Made by a program: the position numbers and the translations under genes. A stretch of DNA of 11,372 bases from Armatimonadota bacterium (GTDB taxonomy: Bacteria; Armatimonadota; Fimbriimonadia; Fimbriimonadales; ATM1). This document shows positions 3,196 to 10,590 of the stretch, in pieces. The notes below the pieces were generated by a model. The model searched no databases and was not told the origin of the DNA. It worked only from the letters and a program-made list of their open reading frames with translations. Numbering within the stretch: the stretch's first letter is position 1; the number at the start of each line of letters is the position of its first letter. Location of the stretch: assembly GCA_013816225.1 (NCBI GenBank), contig JACDEQ010000048.1, positions 1-11,372 on the forward strand, in the 5' to 3' direction.

Positions 3196-3756
3196 ATGCT
3201 GACTTTCTACATCATTTCTGCGATTGTGGGTGGAATCTTGATCCTCGCTTCGGCGTTTGCGAGCGACGACCATCATTTCCACTTCGGTGGCGGGGATTCT
3301 CACGATGCTGACGGTATCCATGCGGATGTTTACATACCGTTCTTTAGCCTCAGATTCTGGACCTATTTTTTCACCTTCTTCGGTGTCACAGGCTTGTCGC
3401 TGACGAATTTTACGACCCTCGCCGCAGGCCTCGTCCCCTGGCTTGCGGGCGCTACAGGTTTGGTATCCGGCCTGCTCGTGTTTTTCAGCATGATGGCCTT
3501 GCGGAGGAACGAGGTAGACAGCAGCGTTTCTCAGGAGGACATCGTCGGTTCGGAAGCCAAGGTGCTCCTATCGATATCAGAGGGGAAACCCGGAAAGATT
3601 CGGTGCGCGATAAAGGGTGAGCTTTTGGACTTAGTCGCGTTCACGTCCGAAAAATCGCCAATAGAAGTCGGGGCGCGGGCGTTGGTCGTGAGCATCCAGA
3701 ATGGCAACGCGGAAGTAGTATCGTTGACGGCGATGCTCGAAGAAGGGAGGAGTTAA
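3196..3756 (+). CDS. NfeD/YuaF-like membrane protein (short NfeD with C-terminal OB-fold), partner of SPFH/flotillin proteins
   Basis: 186 aa. Hydrophobic N-terminal helices (MLTFYIISAIVGGILILASAFA; FWTYFFTFFGVTGLSL; LVPWLAGATGLVSGLLVFF) followed by a C-terminal soluble beta-rich segment (GSEAKVLLSISEGKPGKIRCAIKGELLDLVAFTSEKSPIEVGARALVVSIQNGNAEVV) typical of the NfeD OB-fold. It lies immediately upstream of the flotillin genes with a 4-nt gap, as in B. subtilis yuaF-floT. Confidence 0.7.
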   Translation: MLTFYIISAIVGGILILASAFASDDHHFHFGGGDSHDADGIHADVYIPFFSLRFWTYFFTFFGVTGLSLTNFTTLAAGLVPWLAGATGLVSGLLVFFSMMALRRNEVDSSVSQEDIVGSEAKVLLSISEGKPGKIRCAIKGELLDLVAFTSEKSPIEVGARALVVSIQNGNAEVVSLTAMLEEGRS

Positions 3757-3760
3757 AAGC

Positions 3761-4414
3761 ATGTTCGATTTCTTGCGGGAATGGACCACGATTCACTGGT
3801 CGATTGCGGGCGGCCTCGCCTTCGGGCTCGGCTTGTTGGTCCTGCTGGCGTTCATCAAGAATTTCCTCTATATCTGCACTCCCAACCAGGTTTTGATCTT
3901 TTCGGGTGGCCAGAAGCACCGGTTGCCCGACGGCTCGTACCGCGGATTTAGGGTGGTATTCGGCGGGCGGGGCTGGCGTAAACCATTCTTCGAACGCGTC
4001 AGCCGGATGAGCCTCAACCTTATGGAGGTGCCCATTCACATTCGCGGCGCCTATTCGAAAGGTGGTATTCCGCTCATCGTCGAAGCGATCGCCAACATCA
4101 AGATTTCGAGCGATCCGGTTCTTATCGGCAACGCGATCGAGCGCTTCTTGGGGCGCGATCCGGAGGAGATTCGGCGCGTGGCGAAGGAGACCTTGGAAGG
4201 ACATCTTCGGGGAGTTCTCGCTAAACTCACGCCGGAAGAGGTCAACGAGGACCGCCTCAAATTCGCAGCCGAGCTGAGCCAAGAATCGCAAGACGACCTT
4301 AGTAAGTTGGGGATCCAGGTAGACACACTCAAGATTCAGCACGTCTCCGACGATGTCAAGTATTTGGACTCGATCGGACGTGAAGCGATTGCCAATGTTG
4401 TCCGCGATGCCTAA
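3761..4414 (+). CDS. flotillin paralog 1, N-terminal fragment (TM anchor + SPFH/band-7 domain), terminated by in-frame TAA
   Basis: Membrane anchor plus ICTPNQVLIFSGG and an SPFH core ending in the conserved LKIQHVSDDVKYLDSIGR. Alignable residue-for-residue with the N-terminal half of the downstream intact flotillin (5055..6371). RBS GGGAGGAG at 3747-3754. Confidence 0.75.
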   Translation: MFDFLREWTTIHWSIAGGLAFGLGLLVLLAFIKNFLYICTPNQVLIFSGGQKHRLPDGSYRGFRVVFGGRGWRKPFFERVSRMSLNLMEVPIHIRGAYSKGGIPLIVEAIANIKISSDPVLIGNAIERFLGRDPEEIRRVAKETLEGHLRGVLAKLTPEEVNEDRLKFAAELSQESQDDLSKLGIQVDTLKIQHVSDDVKYLDSIGREAIANVVRDA

Positions 4415-4432
4415 ATTGCGGAGAGTGACGCG

Positions 4433-5053
4433 ATGCGCGCCGCCGCGCAGGCTGAAGCGGAAGCCGAGGGGCGGGCGAAGGTCATCGAAGCGAACGTCGA
4501 CGCGGCCGTCTTTAGGCTTCACAACGATCTGCGAAGAATCCAAGCGGAGTTGGAGTCACAAGTCAAGTCGGAGGAGGAGCGCACGACGGCGGCCGCCCGA
4601 GAGGCACGAGCCGTGGCCGAGCAAGAGTGGCAGCAGGTCAGGGCAGCCGTGGAGGAGATACGCCTAAAGGCTGACAAGGTGCTGCCTGCGGATGCGGCGC
4701 GGACCGCGCAGGAATTCAAGGCGCAGGGCGATGCCGCATCCATCCGAGAAAGGGGGCAGGCTGTTGGACAAGCCCTCGATATGCTTAACGCGGCTTGGTC
4801 GAGCGCCGGTGACAATGCCCTCTCGATATACCTAATCGAAGACATCGAGAATATCTTGAGCGCCGCGGCCAAGGGTGTTTCGAAGGTGAAGATCGGCAAC
4901 CTGAATATCATCGACAGCGGCGACGGGGAAACCCTGTCGTCCTACGTGTCGGCGTATCCGGCCATGCTTTCGTCGATCTTCGACGCCGTGGCGAAGACCA
5001 CCGGTATAGACATTCCGGGATCGATTTCCGGCGTGAAGAAGGAAGGCAAATAA
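4433..5053 (+). CDS. flotillin paralog 1, C-terminal fragment (Ala/Glu-rich coiled-coil + flotillin C-terminal domain)
   Basis: Same reading frame as 3761..4414 (4433-3761 is divisible by 3). AQAEAEAEGRAKVIE EA-repeat region and C-terminal ...ALSIYLIEDIENILSAAAKGVSKVKIGNLNIIDSGDG, which aligns with ...DVFLLQKLDKVIETITSVVAETEIEKLTMIDSSGTG of paralog 2. Own ATG preceded by GGAGAG (4421-4426). Confidence 0.65.
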   Translation: MRAAAQAEAEAEGRAKVIEANVDAAVFRLHNDLRRIQAELESQVKSEEERTTAAAREARAVAEQEWQQVRAAVEEIRLKADKVLPADAARTAQEFKAQGDAASIRERGQAVGQALDMLNAAWSSAGDNALSIYLIEDIENILSAAAKGVSKVKIGNLNIIDSGDGETLSSYVSAYPAMLSSIFDAVAKTTGIDIPGSISGVKKEGK

Positions 5054-5054
5054 T

Positions 5055-6371
5055 ATGGATTGGGCTGCCATTATCATCGGCATTCTCATCGTCGCGGCGG
5101 TAGCCGTCTTCATCACGATTACCAGGCTCATTCAGATTTGCGAGCCGAACGAAGTGCTCATTTTTTCGGGGACTCGTCGCCGCTTGGCGGACCGATCCAT
5201 CGGCTACCGGATCATCAAAGGCGGTATGGGCGTTCGCAAACCTCTCATCGAGCGCGTCGACAAGATGGACCTTACCAACATGATCATCGACGTCTCGGCG
5301 TCGAACGCTTACTCCAAAGGCGGGGTCCCCCTCACGGTTCAAGGTGTCGCAAACGTGAAGATCGCCGGGCACGAACCCGTCCTGAACAACGCGATCGAGC
5401 GATTCCTTGGTAAGACGAGGGCCGAGGTGATGTCGATCGCGAAGGCGACGCTCGAGGGCAGCCTTCGTGGCGTTCTTGCGACACTTACGCCAGAGCAGGT
5501 GAACGAAGACAAACTGCTGTTTGCCGAGAAGCTCGTCCAGGAAGTGGAGCACGACATGACGAGCCTCGGTCTGGTCGTCGATACGCTCAAGATTCAAAAC
5601 GTCCAAGACGACGTCAAGTACCTGGATTCCATCGGCCGCAAACAGACCGCCGAAGTGGTTCGCGTGGCGCGGATCGCTGAAGCGAAAGCGATGTCCGAGG
5701 CGGCCATTAGGTCAGCCGAGAACCGAGAAAGGGAAGTCACCGCCCAAATCACCGCCCAGGTATCGATCGCCAAGGCGGACGCCCAAAAGCGGTTGACCGA
5801 CGCGCTAACGAGACGCGACGCTGTCGTCGCCGAGGAGCAAGCGACAGTTGCTGCCGCGCTGGCATCGGCCAAAGCCGAGGTAGGCGTCCAGACCGCACGC
5901 GTCGAACAGGTGAAAGGACAACTGGACGCCGACGTTGTGCAGCCGGCCAAAGCCGCTCGCCTTGCTGCGGAAGCGGCAGCGAAAGCATCAGCTGCGCCCA
6001 TCATACAAGACGGTAAGGCGCGAGCGGAGGTCCTCCAAACCCTTGCCGACAGTTGGGTAAAGGCGGGTAAGAACGCTCGCGATGTTTTCCTGCTTCAGAA
6101 GCTGGACAAAGTGATCGAGACCATTACCTCCGTGGTTGCCGAGACGGAAATCGAGAAGCTGACGATGATCGATTCCAGTGGAACAGGCGCAACGCAACCT
6201 ATGAAAGCGGTGGCAACCCTCGAACAGATAAAAGAGATTTTCGGCATCGATGTGGTCGGCAAATTGAAATCGCTCGGCGAGCACAACGCCCTGCCGGCAA
6301 ACAGGAACGATGAGGCCCCTTTCGAGGAAACGCGCGAAATTCTCACACCGAAATCTACCCCTGACAGTTAA
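5055..6371 (+). CDS. floT: flotillin (SPFH/band-7 family, FloT/YuaG-like), intact paralog 2
   Basis: 438 aa. N-terminal TM helix, ICEPNEVLIFSG, SPFH core, conserved DDVKYLDSIGRKQTAEVVRVARIAEAKA, long Ala/Glu-rich coiled-coil and flotillin C-terminal region. RBS GGAAGG at 5041-5046. Start is 1 nt after the upstream stop. Confidence 0.85.
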   Translation: MDWAAIIIGILIVAAVAVFITITRLIQICEPNEVLIFSGTRRRLADRSIGYRIIKGGMGVRKPLIERVDKMDLTNMIIDVSASNAYSKGGVPLTVQGVANVKIAGHEPVLNNAIERFLGKTRAEVMSIAKATLEGSLRGVLATLTPEQVNEDKLLFAEKLVQEVEHDMTSLGLVVDTLKIQNVQDDVKYLDSIGRKQTAEVVRVARIAEAKAMSEAAIRSAENREREVTAQITAQVSIAKADAQKRLTDALTRRDAVVAEEQATVAAALASAKAEVGVQTARVEQVKGQLDADVVQPAKAARLAAEAAAKASAAPIIQDGKARAEVLQTLADSWVKAGKNARDVFLLQKLDKVIETITSVVAETEIEKLTMIDSSGTGATQPMKAVATLEQIKEIFGIDVVGKLKSLGEHNALPANRNDEAPFEETREILTPKSTPDS

Positions 6372-6482: not shown

Positions 6483-8729
6483 ATGACAAAGAGAACCCTA
6501 GTGGCCCTTGCCGGTTTCGTCGGGCTATCCTTATTGGCGTCCGTGGCACACGCGGACCAGATCTGGCAGGTCAAAAACGGTACCACGTCGATGACCCTTT
6601 ACCGCCAGATCATTCGCGACATAGGACTCAAACTCGAGATCCGAGAAACCGCTTTACCTCGAACAGATATGGAAGAGGCTGTCGGCTTCAAGGTCACGGG
6701 CGCCAGCGATTTGAAGTTCTTCACCAAGAACGGCATGTACCGCTACTGGACCGAAGGTCGCGTCACAAGCGAGGGCGGATTCACTCTTAAGAGTGCAAAA
6801 GGTTCTCTCAGGGTCGACGACTTCGCGATCATATACCGAAATACCGGCCTGTCGGACAACATGTTCGTTCTGAACGGCGCCACGGACAGCAGCCCGGTTG
6901 CATTCGATCTTTCCCATATCAAGGTCAACTTCGACCGGAAGACCAAGACGCTACGTTTCGGCTACGCCGACATGATCCTCACCAATAAGGCCGCCAATAG
7001 GCTCGGCAGGCCGGACCTTGCCGGCCAAATCATTGGCATGGCAACGGTTTCCGCCCGGGCTGCTTTCGTTAGCGGTGACGTGAAGGATCCCGATCTCGAG
7101 CCCAGTGGTGGCGCCGACGGGGATATGAATGGCAATGTGAAGTTGCACCTTCTCGGCGACTGCACGAGCTACGGCCGGGTCGGTACGTTCCCCAATGGAA
7201 TCAGTGGCCTGGGCATTTCCACGACTTCCTGCAACGTAACCGATATCCCCGGCGACGTCGTCGACTGGTATGCGCAGATGGACGAGCGGCACCCGGTGAT
7301 AGCTCAAAACTTCTACCGTATCCATTCGATCAATGGCGGAACCCGCTTCGAGCAGATCGGCGTCGGCTGGGTTAAGCACGGCTTCCTTTCGACCAACTCG
7401 AATGGCTGTATCGGTCCGAATGGCGAAAACTGCGTAACTCCGCCTAACGGCGGTAACGAACTAGGCGTTTTCTGTTCGGATACTTACGGATCTGGACTCA
7501 ACGCAAGCCGAGATTGGCTCGGCCCGCGCGACGAAATCAACGCGTTCGCAGGCACCTGGGAGTGCACGGGCAGCTACTTCTCGAACTATCAGAACGACTG
7601 TGTCGAGCGCTTCAACACTAACGGTCTGGGCCCGGTGGACCACCGGCTGCAGGTACATGACCAAGACCTGACGGCGCCGAACTCGCAGTTCTTCTATGAA
7701 GCCTACTACGTGTCCAGGGACGACGTAGATCGCTATAATAGCGCAGCGTTTCGCCCATGCACGGTCAACTTCCAGGGCGGCGATTGGCACTTCCAGCCGA
7801 CCCAAGCGCAGACGAATGGCGTAGTTGCCGACCACTGGGGCGATATTCAGCCGGCTCCCAGGGCGCAACCGGCCGACGAAGGTGATATCCTCGTCGCCGT
7901 TCAGGTGAACGATCTTGGCGGCGGCAAGTGGCACTACGACTATGCGGTGTATAACCATACATCGTATCGTGAGATGCGCCAGTTCACGATTCCCTTGCCG
8001 GATGGCTTGACACTCGAGAACGTCGAGTTCCGAGACATCGACAAAGACGACACCAACGAGTGGACGTGGAACTACGGAAACTCCGCGTTGACGTGGAAGA
8101 CGAGCACGTACGCTCAGAGCCCAGATGCGAACTCGCTCAAGTGGAATAGCGTCTTCAACTTCCGATTCGACGCGAATTCGCCTCCGGCCGTCAACGGATC
8201 CACGGCTACCCTCGGCCTGTTCAGACCGGGCGTCCTTCAGATGCTCGCGGCGGAGACCCGAGGGCCGAGAAGCCCGTTCACGAATCCCACGGTCCTAAAT
8301 GTGGAGCGCGGTGACCAAGTGGCGGGTGGGCTGGCCGACCTCTTCAACAGCGACGATTCGAAGTTGGGCTTGCATCCCGGAATAGTCTTCGGCACGTTTC
8401 AAGCGCCGATTCGAGTCGTTCTAGAGGGCACGAGCGCCCAAGGCCCGACAACCCTCAAGTTCCGCGTAGAGTCGGCTGCCAGTTCGCCCAGTGTGAGTCA
8501 GAAGATTGAGCTCTTCAACTTCACGTTAGGCAGCTATGTGCCGTTGAGCACGACCAACTTGACGACGTCGGATGGTGTTGTCGAAGTCGCGGCCCCGAAT
8601 CCTGCGCAGTTCGTGCAAGCGGTTACCGGCAAGGTTCGAGCCCGGCTCGAGTTTAAGCTGACCGGTCCGGTGTTCGTGTTCCCGTGGAGCGTGGACATCG
8701 ACCAAGCGGTCTGGAGAATCCTCCCGTAG
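6483..8729 (+). CDS. secreted Cys-containing protein of unknown family (748 aa) with a ~140-aa C-terminal module shared with the next gene
   Basis: Strong SD. N-terminal signal peptide MTKRTLVALAGFVGLSLLASVAHA/DQ. Long uninterrupted ORF with several spaced Cys (CTSYG...CNVT; NGCIGPNGENCVTPP...FCSDTYG; WECTGSYFSNYQNDCVERF), consistent with extracellular disulfides. No motif I can assign to a known family. Confidence 0.7.
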   Translation: MTKRTLVALAGFVGLSLLASVAHADQIWQVKNGTTSMTLYRQIIRDIGLKLEIRETALPRTDMEEAVGFKVTGASDLKFFTKNGMYRYWTEGRVTSEGGFTLKSAKGSLRVDDFAIIYRNTGLSDNMFVLNGATDSSPVAFDLSHIKVNFDRKTKTLRFGYADMILTNKAANRLGRPDLAGQIIGMATVSARAAFVSGDVKDPDLEPSGGADGDMNGNVKLHLLGDCTSYGRVGTFPNGISGLGISTTSCNVTDIPGDVVDWYAQMDERHPVIAQNFYRIHSINGGTRFEQIGVGWVKHGFLSTNSNGCIGPNGENCVTPPNGGNELGVFCSDTYGSGLNASRDWLGPRDEINAFAGTWECTGSYFSNYQNDCVERFNTNGLGPVDHRLQVHDQDLTAPNSQFFYEAYYVSRDDVDRYNSAAFRPCTVNFQGGDWHFQPTQAQTNGVVADHWGDIQPAPRAQPADEGDILVAVQVNDLGGGKWHYDYAVYNHTSYREMRQFTIPLPDGLTLENVEFRDIDKDDTNEWTWNYGNSALTWKTSTYAQSPDANSLKWNSVFNFRFDANSPPAVNGSTATLGLFRPGVLQMLAAETRGPRSPFTNPTVLNVERGDQVAGGLADLFNSDDSKLGLHPGIVFGTFQAPIRVVLEGTSAQGPTTLKFRVESAASSPSVSQKIELFNFTLGSYVPLSTTNLTTSDGVVEVAAPNPAQFVQAVTGKVRARLEFKLTGPVFVFPWSVDIDQAVWRILP

Positions 8730-8754
8730 AGAGCGTCTCGTTGACCACGGATAA

Positions 8755-8781
8755 GCGCGGCCTTTCGGGCCGCGCTTTTTT
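8755..8781 (+). terminator. rho-independent terminator
   Basis: GCGCGGCC (8755-8762), loop TTTCG, GGCCGCGC (8768-8775): perfect 8-bp GC stem followed by TTTTTT (8776-8781), 26 nt after the stop of the 748-aa ORF. Confidence 0.85.
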
Positions 8782-8804
8782 CGTCCGAGTACGATCGTTT
8801 GCGG

Positions 8805-8834
8805 GTGCACGGGCGCCAAGCTTCTGCGTAGAAT
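8805..8834 (+). promoter_or_regulatory. candidate sigma70-type promoter (-10 TAGAAT at 8829-8834, weak -35 GTGCAC at 8805-8810, 18-nt spacer)
   Basis: Good -10 hexamer in the 178-bp intergenic region downstream of the terminator. The -35 is poor. Located ~75 nt upstream of the preferred GTG start of the next gene. Confidence 0.3.
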
Positions 8835-8907
8835 GAGTATGCAACTAGAGTTGGGTCCGAGGTGCGGCCCCACCCCCTTTGATCGAAAAAGTGAGGAATC
8901 GTTAAAA

Positions 8908-10590
8908 GTGAATACTTCGAAGCTTTTGCCCGCCGCCTTAGGCGCGGCGAGCCTGTTTACCGGCGCTTCGGCGCAAACCTTGGTCGACCCCGACTACTTC
9001 GTTGAAACTTACGCATCGGGCTTATCCGGAGCTGTGGGCATGGAGTTTCTTTCAGCGTCGACTGTCCTTGTCACGCAGAAGGATACTGGACAAGTGAGGG
9101 TCGTCGTGAACGGTGTGGTGGACGGAACACCCGCGCTTGATTTACCTGTCAATAACGCCAGCGAGCGCGGTCTCCTCGGCATTTGCAAGCACCCCGATTT
9201 CGCCAAAAATGGTTTCGTTTACCTTTACTGGAGCCGATCCACGACCGGCGGGGATACCGGGGTCAGTGCAAACTGGAGCGACAACCGGGTCGAGCGGTAC
9301 GTTTACAACAGCGGAACGCTCTCACTCGACTCCCTGATCGCCATTTTCTCGAAAGATCCGGCACAAAATAACGGCCCGAATCATGATGGCGGAGTAATCA
9401 TGATCGGGCCCGATCAGAAGCTCTACATCATCACCGGTGACCTAAATAGGAACCGAGCCGAGCAGAACAATCAAGGCACACCGAACCTTTCCGCGAAGGT
9501 AGGCGGCGTACACCGGCTGAACCTCGACGGCACAATCCCAGGCGACAATCCGTTCGTGGGCTTAGGCAACACCGATTTCCACCCGTATTATGTGTATGGC
9601 GTGCGCAATTCGTACGGCATGAGCTGGGACCCTCTAACGAGCAAAATCTGGTTCACGGAGAATGGCCCCGGATCTTATGACGAAGTCAATCACGTCCCGA
9701 CCCCAGGTATGAACTCGGGCTGGAATGAACTCATGGGCCCGGATTCGAGAGATCCGCAAGGCGTGGGTGACCTCGTCATGTTCACTGGGGCCTACTATCG
9801 TGACCCAGAATTCAGCTGGCTTACACCCATTGCAGTCACCTCCATTGCTTGGTTGACTAGCAGCAAGTTCCACGGGACCGAGCGCACACATTGCGTCATA
9901 GGCGACGCAAACAACGGCTTCCTTTACCTGTTCCAAATGAACCTTGCCAGAGACGGATTCGTGCTCAGCGGCGGCGTAGCCGACAAGGTTGCCGATAGCA
10001 GCGCCGAGCGCGACCTGAATAAATGGGGCAGCGGCTTTGGCATCACCACCGACCTCGAAATCGGCCAAGATGGCTACCTGTACGGAACTAGCCTAACACT
10101 CGGTCGGATCTTTAGGATTCGGCCGGTTGTCGAAAGCGTCGTTCCAACGTCGTTCTCGCTCTTTCGTGGTGTCCTCATTTCGGGCAATCTGCAAAGCCTC
10201 AGTGCGAGCGACGACAACCGGCTGGTAACCCGGCCAGGGCCGGTCTTTACCAACGCTGAAGCCCCGATCCAGCTGATCCTAACGAGCACCTCGCCTTTTG
10301 TGGCGCCATCGGCTCTCTCATTCAAGATCGAGTCGAATTGCTCGGTGAGCAACATCACGCAGTCGGTAGCCCTTTATAACTTCAACACCATGTCGTACGA
10401 GACGCTGAACACGGGGACGGCAATGACATCTGACAGCACCATCACGATCAACGTTTCATCCGATGCCGCCAGGTTCATCGGACCCGATAACGAACTCCGC
10501 GCGAGAATCAGTTACAAAGCGCAAGGAACAACCTTCATCTATCCCTGGCATTCCCGGATCGACCACGTCCAGTGGACTCTGACCCGCTAG
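8908..10590 (+). CDS. secreted soluble glucose/sorbosone dehydrogenase-like (PQQ-dependent-type) beta-propeller protein with shared C-terminal module
   Basis: Preferred start is GTG 8908, preceded by GAGGA (8893-8897, ~10-nt spacer), giving signal peptide (M)NTSKLLPAALGAASLFTGASA/QT. Family motifs: DYFVETYASGL, PALDLPVNNASERGLLGICKHPDFAKNGFVYLYWS, later blades (NGPNHDGGVIMIGPDQKLYIITGD, WDPLTSKIWFTENGPGSYDEVN). The in-frame ATG at 8833 is an alternative start but has no SD and an atypical N-region. Confidence 0.7.
   Translation: MNTSKLLPAALGAASLFTGASAQTLVDPDYFVETYASGLSGAVGMEFLSASTVLVTQKDTGQVRVVVNGVVDGTPALDLPVNNASERGLLGICKHPDFAKNGFVYLYWSRSTTGGDTGVSANWSDNRVERYVYNSGTLSLDSLIAIFSKDPAQNNGPNHDGGVIMIGPDQKLYIITGDLNRNRAEQNNQGTPNLSAKVGGVHRLNLDGTIPGDNPFVGLGNTDFHPYYVYGVRNSYGMSWDPLTSKIWFTENGPGSYDEVNHVPTPGMNSGWNELMGPDSRDPQGVGDLVMFTGAYYRDPEFSWLTPIAVTSIAWLTSSKFHGTERTHCVIGDANNGFLYLFQMNLARDGFVLSGGVADKVADSSAERDLNKWGSGFGITTDLEIGQDGYLYGTSLTLGRIFRIRPVVESVVPTSFSLFRGVLISGNLQSLSASDDNRLVTRPGPVFTNAEAPIQLILTSTSPFVAPSALSFKIESNCSVSNITQSVALYNFNTMSYETLNTGTAMTSDSTITINVSSDAARFIGPDNELRARISYKAQGTTFIYPWHSRIDHVQWTLTR

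Follow-up and report, generated by a model that had tools for sequence, protein, structure and literature searches.

A predicted jelly-roll module at the C-termini of unrelated exported proteins in Armatimonadota

The stretch of DNA analysed here, referred to as the window, comprises 11,372 nucleotides of contig JACDEQ010000048.1 from an Armatimonadota bacterium. It contains two adjacent genes, here called A and B, whose predicted exported products carry a common module of ~147 amino acids (aa) at their extreme C-termini, while the part that precedes the module is called the passenger. The genes and their features are as follows, all on the + strand.

6483..8729, +, gene A, encoding a 748-aa exported protein with the module at its C-terminus (from the list of open reading frames, ORFs)
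6483..6554, +, predicted Sec-type signal peptide of A, MTKRTLVALAGFVGLSLLASVAHA followed by DQ, ending in ...SVAHA (translation)
6555-8285, +, passenger of A, ~580 aa (aa 25-601), without a Pfam or NCBIfam match
8286..8726, +, predicted jelly-roll module of A (aa 602-748), running to the stop codon (BLASTP against B, E=1e-24)
8753..8787, +, intrinsic terminator 3' of gene A, with an 11-bp stem, 8 GC pairs and then a T-run (sequence)
8908..10590, +, gene B, encoding an exported beta-propeller of the glucose/sorbosone dehydrogenase (GSDH) type, 560 aa from GTG 8908 as the probable start (Pfam PF07995)
8908..8973, +, putative Sec-type signal peptide of B, VNTSKLLPAALGAASLFTGASA followed by QT (sequence pattern)
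9034..9879, +, GSDH beta-propeller domain of B (PF07995, aa 68-349 of the 585-aa ORF)
10144..10587, +, predicted jelly-roll module of B, 148 aa, running to the stop codon (BLASTP, and hidden Markov model (HMM) E=1.7e-62)

A BLASTP comparison of protein A (748 aa) with the 585-aa ORF of protein B gave only one significant alignment (E=1e-24), which spans residues 602-746 of A and 438-583 of B with 50 of 146 positions identical (34%), 54% positives and one gap. Outside the module the best segment has E=0.34, which indicates that the passengers of A and B are unrelated. A preliminary description of this DNA had noticed a common C-terminal module in two adjacent and otherwise unrelated proteins, and this holds; the similarity that it saw is clear, while its estimate of ~40% identity was slightly high, and the module start that it gave for A, 8300, is out of frame and has to be replaced by the in-frame 8286. 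The anchor residues it had picked out (SDD..L, PG.VF, API, ES, NF, SY, TSD, F.YPW and ID..W) are present, and most of them fall in the best-conserved columns of the family.

The signal peptide of A was read off the translation, from its n-h-c pattern and AHA motif. For gene B the mechanical ORF extends from ATG 8833 to 10590 (585 aa), but GTG 8908 rather than ATG 8833 is probably the true start, because GAGGA lies 10 nt upstream of it, because the orthologue at the syntenic locus L002 (loci are given by our own numbers) begins at the equivalent MNISKLLP, and because a proper signal peptide ending ...GASA before QT then results. The GSDH assignment of B rests on PF07995 (E=1.2e-44); TIGR03606 of NCBIfam scores 1.3e-24, which is below the cutoff of that model. 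The terminator is a strong one that begins 24 nt past the stop codon of gene A, and A and B are therefore separate transcription units.

The module recurs widely outside the window. A profile built solely from the two window modules was searched against 1.84 billion cluster representatives (50% identity) and retrieved 2,454 of them at E<=1e-3, 1,388 at E<=1e-10 and 168 at E<=1e-30. That a profile made from two copies retrieves 2,454 clusters excludes chance similarity, and the module is thus not just a local duplication. On protein A the family HMM gives E=2.5e-56 and covers aa 602-747 of 748. Among the best 150 of the 2,454 representatives, 149 have no more than 0-5 residues after the module; it is single in each protein and never duplicated in tandem, and is joined directly to the passenger without a low-complexity linker; the sole non-terminal case is P0146 (858 aa, NCBI-sourced), in which the module at 599-741 is followed by a 117-aa extension. 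An N-terminus resembling a signal peptide was found by a crude test in 81 of 98 full-length proteins, and the complete ORFs at genomic loci agree. The expectation of the preliminary description that such modules would stand terminally on signal-peptide proteins with unrelated passengers is therefore borne out.

The passengers are indeed diverse. In 71 representatives they include PD40 (13), SBBP (6), WD40-type, PQQ_2, FG-GAP and other families, this tally being based on the 25 most frequent of 78 families, among which there is no glycoside hydrolase (GH) or polysaccharide lyase (PL) family. At the genomic loci the passengers comprise GSDH, three S8 subtilases (Peptidase_S8; 3 of the 10 locus proteins scanned), PPC, LVIVD and several proteins without a Pfam match. 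Passenger types of this kind bear SLH, LPXTG or T9SS (type IX secretion system) anchors in other phyla. One passenger family, of ~480-500 aa, was met repeatedly, with several paralogues across metagenome-assembled genomes (MAGs), all of which end in the module; its N-terminus resembles MK..A.AIA.FLA.CANAQWTVVNLHP, and the member that was scanned, at L006, has no Pfam match. Its members lie at the following positions.

L006 5002-6447; L007 2063-3505 (-); L009 4984-6447; L011 4969-6450; L012 5011-6447, the ~480-500-aa passenger family

Overall, the family looks large and unannotated, and the exported status of its members is read from their signal peptides.

Neither Pfam-A nor NCBIfam yielded a family for module A or for the passenger of A. 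Module B had just one match, to GH114_assoc (PF14741), whose score of 20.1 bits is below the Pfam gathering threshold of 22 (E=7.8e-4), and only 2 of 64 diverse modules match this family at E<=0.01, so that a remote kinship of the module to PF14741 is possible from its sequence. The same 64 modules gave no consistent family in Pfam and no hit in NCBIfam at E<=0.01, profile searches of PDB sequences returned nothing, and a description of the domain was not found in the literature. The genome paper of Fimbriimonas ginsengisoli reports genes of a type II secretion system and nothing on C-terminal domains (PMC4072686).

Particular candidates were likewise set aside. The C-terminal domain (CTD) of T9SS cargo differs in fold, and its profiles (TIGR04183, TIGR04131 and PF18962, Por_Secre_tail) match none of the 64 modules. 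Signals of the PEP-CTERM, LPXTG or GlyGly-CTERM type do not fit a C-terminus that is a beta-strand (..ID..W-x-[ILV]-x-P) and lacks a hydrophobic helix, and no CTERM model of NCBIfam was hit. The PPC domain (PF04151) matches only the passenger of a third module-bearing protein (aa 61-129, see below) and not the module, and dockerin (PF00404) and SLH (PF00395) gave no Pfam hit, the module being single and non-repetitive. None of the Pfam models for carbohydrate-binding modules (CBMs) was hit by any of the 64 modules, and neither P_proprotein nor C1q was matched among them. The earlier statement that the module is unlike T9SS CTD, PEP-CTERM, LPXTG and PPC domains is in line with these searches, in which Pfam and NCBIfam contained no confident profile hit to a described domain. 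The domain family thus appears to be undescribed; its fold is already known, as set out below, while the family and its deployment appear new.

A structural model, which the preliminary description had proposed as a check, could be obtained with confidence. The sequence of module B was modelled by AlphaFold2 from a 64-sequence alignment, with pLDDT 96.8 and pTM 0.90 (a run from a 2-sequence alignment reached pLDDT 55.8 and was not used), and the model contains 10-11 strands and two short helices. The predicted fold is a galactose-binding-like beta-jelly-roll of the CBM type. In Foldseek comparisons with the PDB the solved structures nearest to the model are CBMs that belong to xylanases, mannanases, a laminarinase and alginate lyases, including CBM4-2 of the Rhodothermus marinus xylanase (4bj0/1k42) and CBM22 (2w5f/4xuo), at only 5-15% identity, and in BFVD the matches are tail-fibre-like proteins of uncultured phages (TMq 0.75-0.80, 18-20% identity). 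The structural matches in both databases are all glycan- or receptor-binding modules.

The BFVD entries A0A6J5T3S3_1, A0A6J7WIE9_2 and A0A6J5L7N1_2, which are large, tail-fibre-like proteins of uncultured Caudovirales with lectin-like or collagen-repeat character, outscore most or all PDB entries against the module model (TMq 0.67-0.80, 18-20% identity). From this modelled similarity they may be true remote homologues that serve as receptor-binding domains. The phage jelly-rolls that resemble the module in structure, namely TmpF of S. aureus phage phi812 (PDB 9euf_H) and Caudovirales A0A6J5T3S3 and A0A6J5L7N1 (BFVD), differ from it in being viral and in forming a domain within a large tail assembly, and a pattern scan of IMG/VR viral contigs found no sequence relatives of the module.

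Conservation was estimated over 137 modules, with aa 438 of B numbered as 1. G9 is conserved in 100% of them, G14 and D140 in 99%, P41 in 98%, W144 in 97%, P134 in 96%, D23 in 94%, and G32, E63, D97 and W135 in 93%, and S22, D24, R8, Q73, N79 and G128 are likewise well conserved. Most of these positions fall within one of two long loops (residues 20-41 and residues 127-136) or where a strand ends, and paralogues with just 30-50% identity have these polar and aromatic residues in common. Such conservation across diverse paralogues points to one common partner rather than many substrates, and the invariant acidic residues together with the aromatic YPW loop suggest one common ligand or metal site.

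All named or genome-assigned hits belong to Armatimonadota, most of them to Fimbriimonadales. The named hits are 14-15 short proteins, recovered with two alignments of 56-65 sequences by means of a word index that is lossy for this family, and a homologue search by the same lossy index with single module A gave no match. The restriction to Armatimonadota covers the named and genome-assigned hits, and not those of the 2,454 clusters that match less well. A search of a species-representative genome collection with a 6-sequence alignment, which is biased to close relatives, gave 16 loci, all of them (16/16) from Fimbriimonadales or Armatimonadota MAGs and 11 of the 16 from one MAG. From its sequence distribution the family looks specific to the phylum Armatimonadota.

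In the MAG that contributed 11 loci, an HMM scan of ~120 kb of sampled sequence turned up at least 13 module ORFs that are intact and 2 that are split, the count of intact copies being a lower bound since the scan relied on two narrow peptide patterns. The module is always at the end of the ORF in these loci, and the genes, which are dispersed in the genome, often occur in pairs or triplets. Module ORFs split across frames were seen at L016 4060-6440, L017 5902-6323 and L012 4127-4992, and are possibly pseudogenes or frameshifts of MAG assembly.

Comparison of orthologous loci gives an indication of the age of the fusions. The syntenic locus L002 has passengers 90% (A) and 92% (B) identical to those of the window. 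The passenger of A is kept at 44-90% identity in the Fimbriimonadales loci L002 and L013, and two tandem paralogues of it are found in L018; the synteny around it is also kept, with a class-III aminotransferase upstream and an M1-like peptidase and HrcA downstream. Modules of the A type are 42-90% identical among themselves and those of the B type 50-80%, whereas the A and B modules of the window, close orthologues included, share 32-39% identity. Module similarity thus tracks passenger orthology, which argues that the fusions are old and maintained and arose before the compared genomes diverged. The same figures rule out a recent local duplication, since module A is more similar to its A-type counterparts elsewhere than to module B beside it.

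A third module-bearing protein is encoded on the same contig beyond the window, ~6 kb downstream of A and B.

L001 14753-16315, -, 520-aa protein with the module (HMM E=1e-37)

Here too the module is at the extreme C-terminus and a predicted signal peptide is present, and Pfam places a PPC domain at aa 61-129 of the passenger part. The region after this domain resembles, by eye, a second PPC-like repeat.

The neighbourhoods of the module genes were inspected for associated machinery. Among 115 neighbour ORFs at the 16 loci and on three long contigs there is no recurrent family beyond generic TPR, AAA and methyltransferase proteins, and operon-linked machinery was rejected for this reason. In ~250 kb of flanking sequence, which represents parts of genomes, no T9SS machinery genes (SprA/Sov, PorV, PorU, GldKLMN) were found. 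The other genes of the window are unrelated to A and B and encode pyruvate-dehydrogenase E1 subunits, a class-III aminotransferase, an NfeD/flotillin operon and an M1-like peptidase. The apparent operon at 3196-6371 comprises four genes, for an NfeD-like membrane protein, a 217-aa Band_7/SPFH protein, a protein of 206 aa without a Pfam match, and another Band_7/SPFH protein that is flotillin-like and 438 aa long.

The explanation that we favour, tentatively and at somewhat less than an even likelihood, is that the module serves as an address particular to this lineage, which binds a glycan or the envelope and so keeps exported proteins on one shared ligand. The N-terminal signal peptide would carry the protein over the inner membrane, and passenger and jelly-roll would then fold in the envelope, where the jelly-roll would bind one conserved ligand common to all family members. 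The likeliest ligand would be a glycan of the cell envelope, i.e. lipopolysaccharide (LPS), O-antigen, exopolysaccharide or peptidoglycan, and binding may involve a metal site of SDD 22-24, E63, D97 and D140 together with the conserved GPxFxYPW loop. Propellers, subtilases and dehydrogenases would thereby be held or displayed at one place. This explanation draws on the fold, the C-terminal deployment, the signal peptides, the conservation, the age and maintenance of the fusions, the multiple copies in one MAG and the diverse passengers, most of which are not carbohydrate-active enzymes (CAZymes). It would have a parallel in SLH domains, type I dockerins and the LPS-binding domains of S-layer proteins, in which one module tethers many secreted proteins to a common polymer or scaffold, although the module is unrelated to these in sequence and fold and SLH and dockerin domains are repeats with a less strict placement. 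Several points weigh against it. A position fixed at the extreme C-terminus is seen more with secretion or sorting tags, the T9SS CTD for one, than with CBMs, which occur anywhere in a protein; the module proteins may instead be located in the periplasm; the jelly-roll fold also serves functions other than glycan binding (P-domain, C1q/TNF, MAM); and it is an assumption that the conserved acidic and aromatic residues cluster spatially in one site.

A first alternative is a secretion or sorting tag, which would be recognised in the periplasm by an outer-membrane translocon and/or a processing enzyme in a manner functionally like the T9SS CTD, and which might afterwards be removed or used for covalent attachment. 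We regard such a tag as rather unlikely, though it deserves serious consideration, and its more specific form, a cargo tag of an outer-membrane secretion-and-attachment pathway with its machinery elsewhere in the genome and the T9SS-CTD logic reinvented on a jelly-roll scaffold, as somewhat more doubtful. The T9SS CTD of Bacteroidota resembles the module in several respects: it is also a folded beta-sandwich at the extreme C-terminus of signal-peptide proteins, is restricted to a lineage, and is carried by heterogeneous passengers (proteases, propellers, adhesin-like repeats) from dozens of dispersed genes per genome. The terminal position in 149 of 150 proteins, the one copy per protein, the signal peptides, the many cargo-like paralogues dispersed in the genome as T9SS cargo genes are, and the occurrence of the family in a single phylum would all fit a tag, and the repertoire of subtilases, SBBP, FG-GAP and PD40 propellers and PPC passengers is similar to that of T9SS cargo. 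However, the T9SS CTD is an Ig-like sandwich of ~70-100 aa (typically ~80 aa), whereas the module is a 148-aa jelly-roll of 10-11 strands without a match to TIGR04183, TIGR04131 or Por_Secre_tail; no translocon or peptidase gene recurs in the 115 neighbour ORFs or on the three further contigs, and we know of no secretion system that recognises a CBM-like jelly-roll. The preliminary description had raised the possibility of an undescribed protein-sorting system, and this part of it is not established here: no protease, transpeptidase or secretion gene recurs near the 16 and more loci, and the modelled fold is of the CBM type. The fold speaks rather for the other option named there, a shared binding module.

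If the module binds glycans, it could also be an ordinary CBM or lectin that directs its passengers to a polysaccharide in the environment, the matrix of a biofilm or the surface of prey cells, and that plays no part at the envelope of the cell itself. This seems unlikely to us. The nearest solved structures are those of CBMs from polysaccharide-degrading enzymes (xylanases, mannanases, laminarinase and alginate lyases), and the beta-jelly-roll fold of the model is common to CBM4/22/9 and to CBM32, CBM6, CBM16, CBM29 and CBM61. Armatimonadota have been described as carbohydrate scavengers (PMC4959169). The examined passengers, on the other hand, are mainly propellers, S8 proteases and GSDH without a glycoside hydrolase or lyase, the module belongs by sequence to no Pfam CBM family, and CBMs are positionally free and often in tandem, while the module is strictly terminal, never in tandem, found in a single phylum, attached to non-CAZyme passengers and just 5-15% identical to known CBMs. 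The putative binding residues are, moreover, strongly conserved over very diverse passengers. A structural accessory without a targeting role, either a folding or stability domain as in the kexin-type P-domain or an oligomerisation domain of the C1q/TNF type, is less probable still and to be thought of as distinctly unlikely: the direct junction of passenger and module, the frequency of S8 subtilases (3/10) at the scanned loci and the BFVD hits to phage proteins with collagen repeats, which often have a trimeric terminal domain, would agree with it, but the unrelated folds of the passengers make a passenger-specific chaperone role unlikely, and no Pfam P_proprotein or C1q match was obtained. 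Recent local duplication or chance similarity, which the adjacency of A and B and the third copy 6 kb away could have indicated, can practically be dismissed in view of the E value of 1e-24, the 2,454 cluster representatives elsewhere, and fusions older than the split between the compared genomes (42-90% among A-type modules against 32-39% between A and B).

Armatimonadota are a widespread and poorly studied diderm phylum, in which the delivery of proteins to the surface is essentially unknown. The domain marks a large and diverse set of exported proteins and thereby offers a way into the set of proteins that members of the phylum secrete or carry at their surface, as well as a concrete reagent toward the envelope ligand or the interacting machinery. 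Thousands of "hypothetical proteins" could be annotated with an HMM of the domain, which merits a Pfam or NCBIfam entry. Should the module turn out to be a sorting signal, a new protein-sorting system would thereby be defined; should it be a glycan anchor, the few bacterial surface-anchoring modules would gain a new fold.

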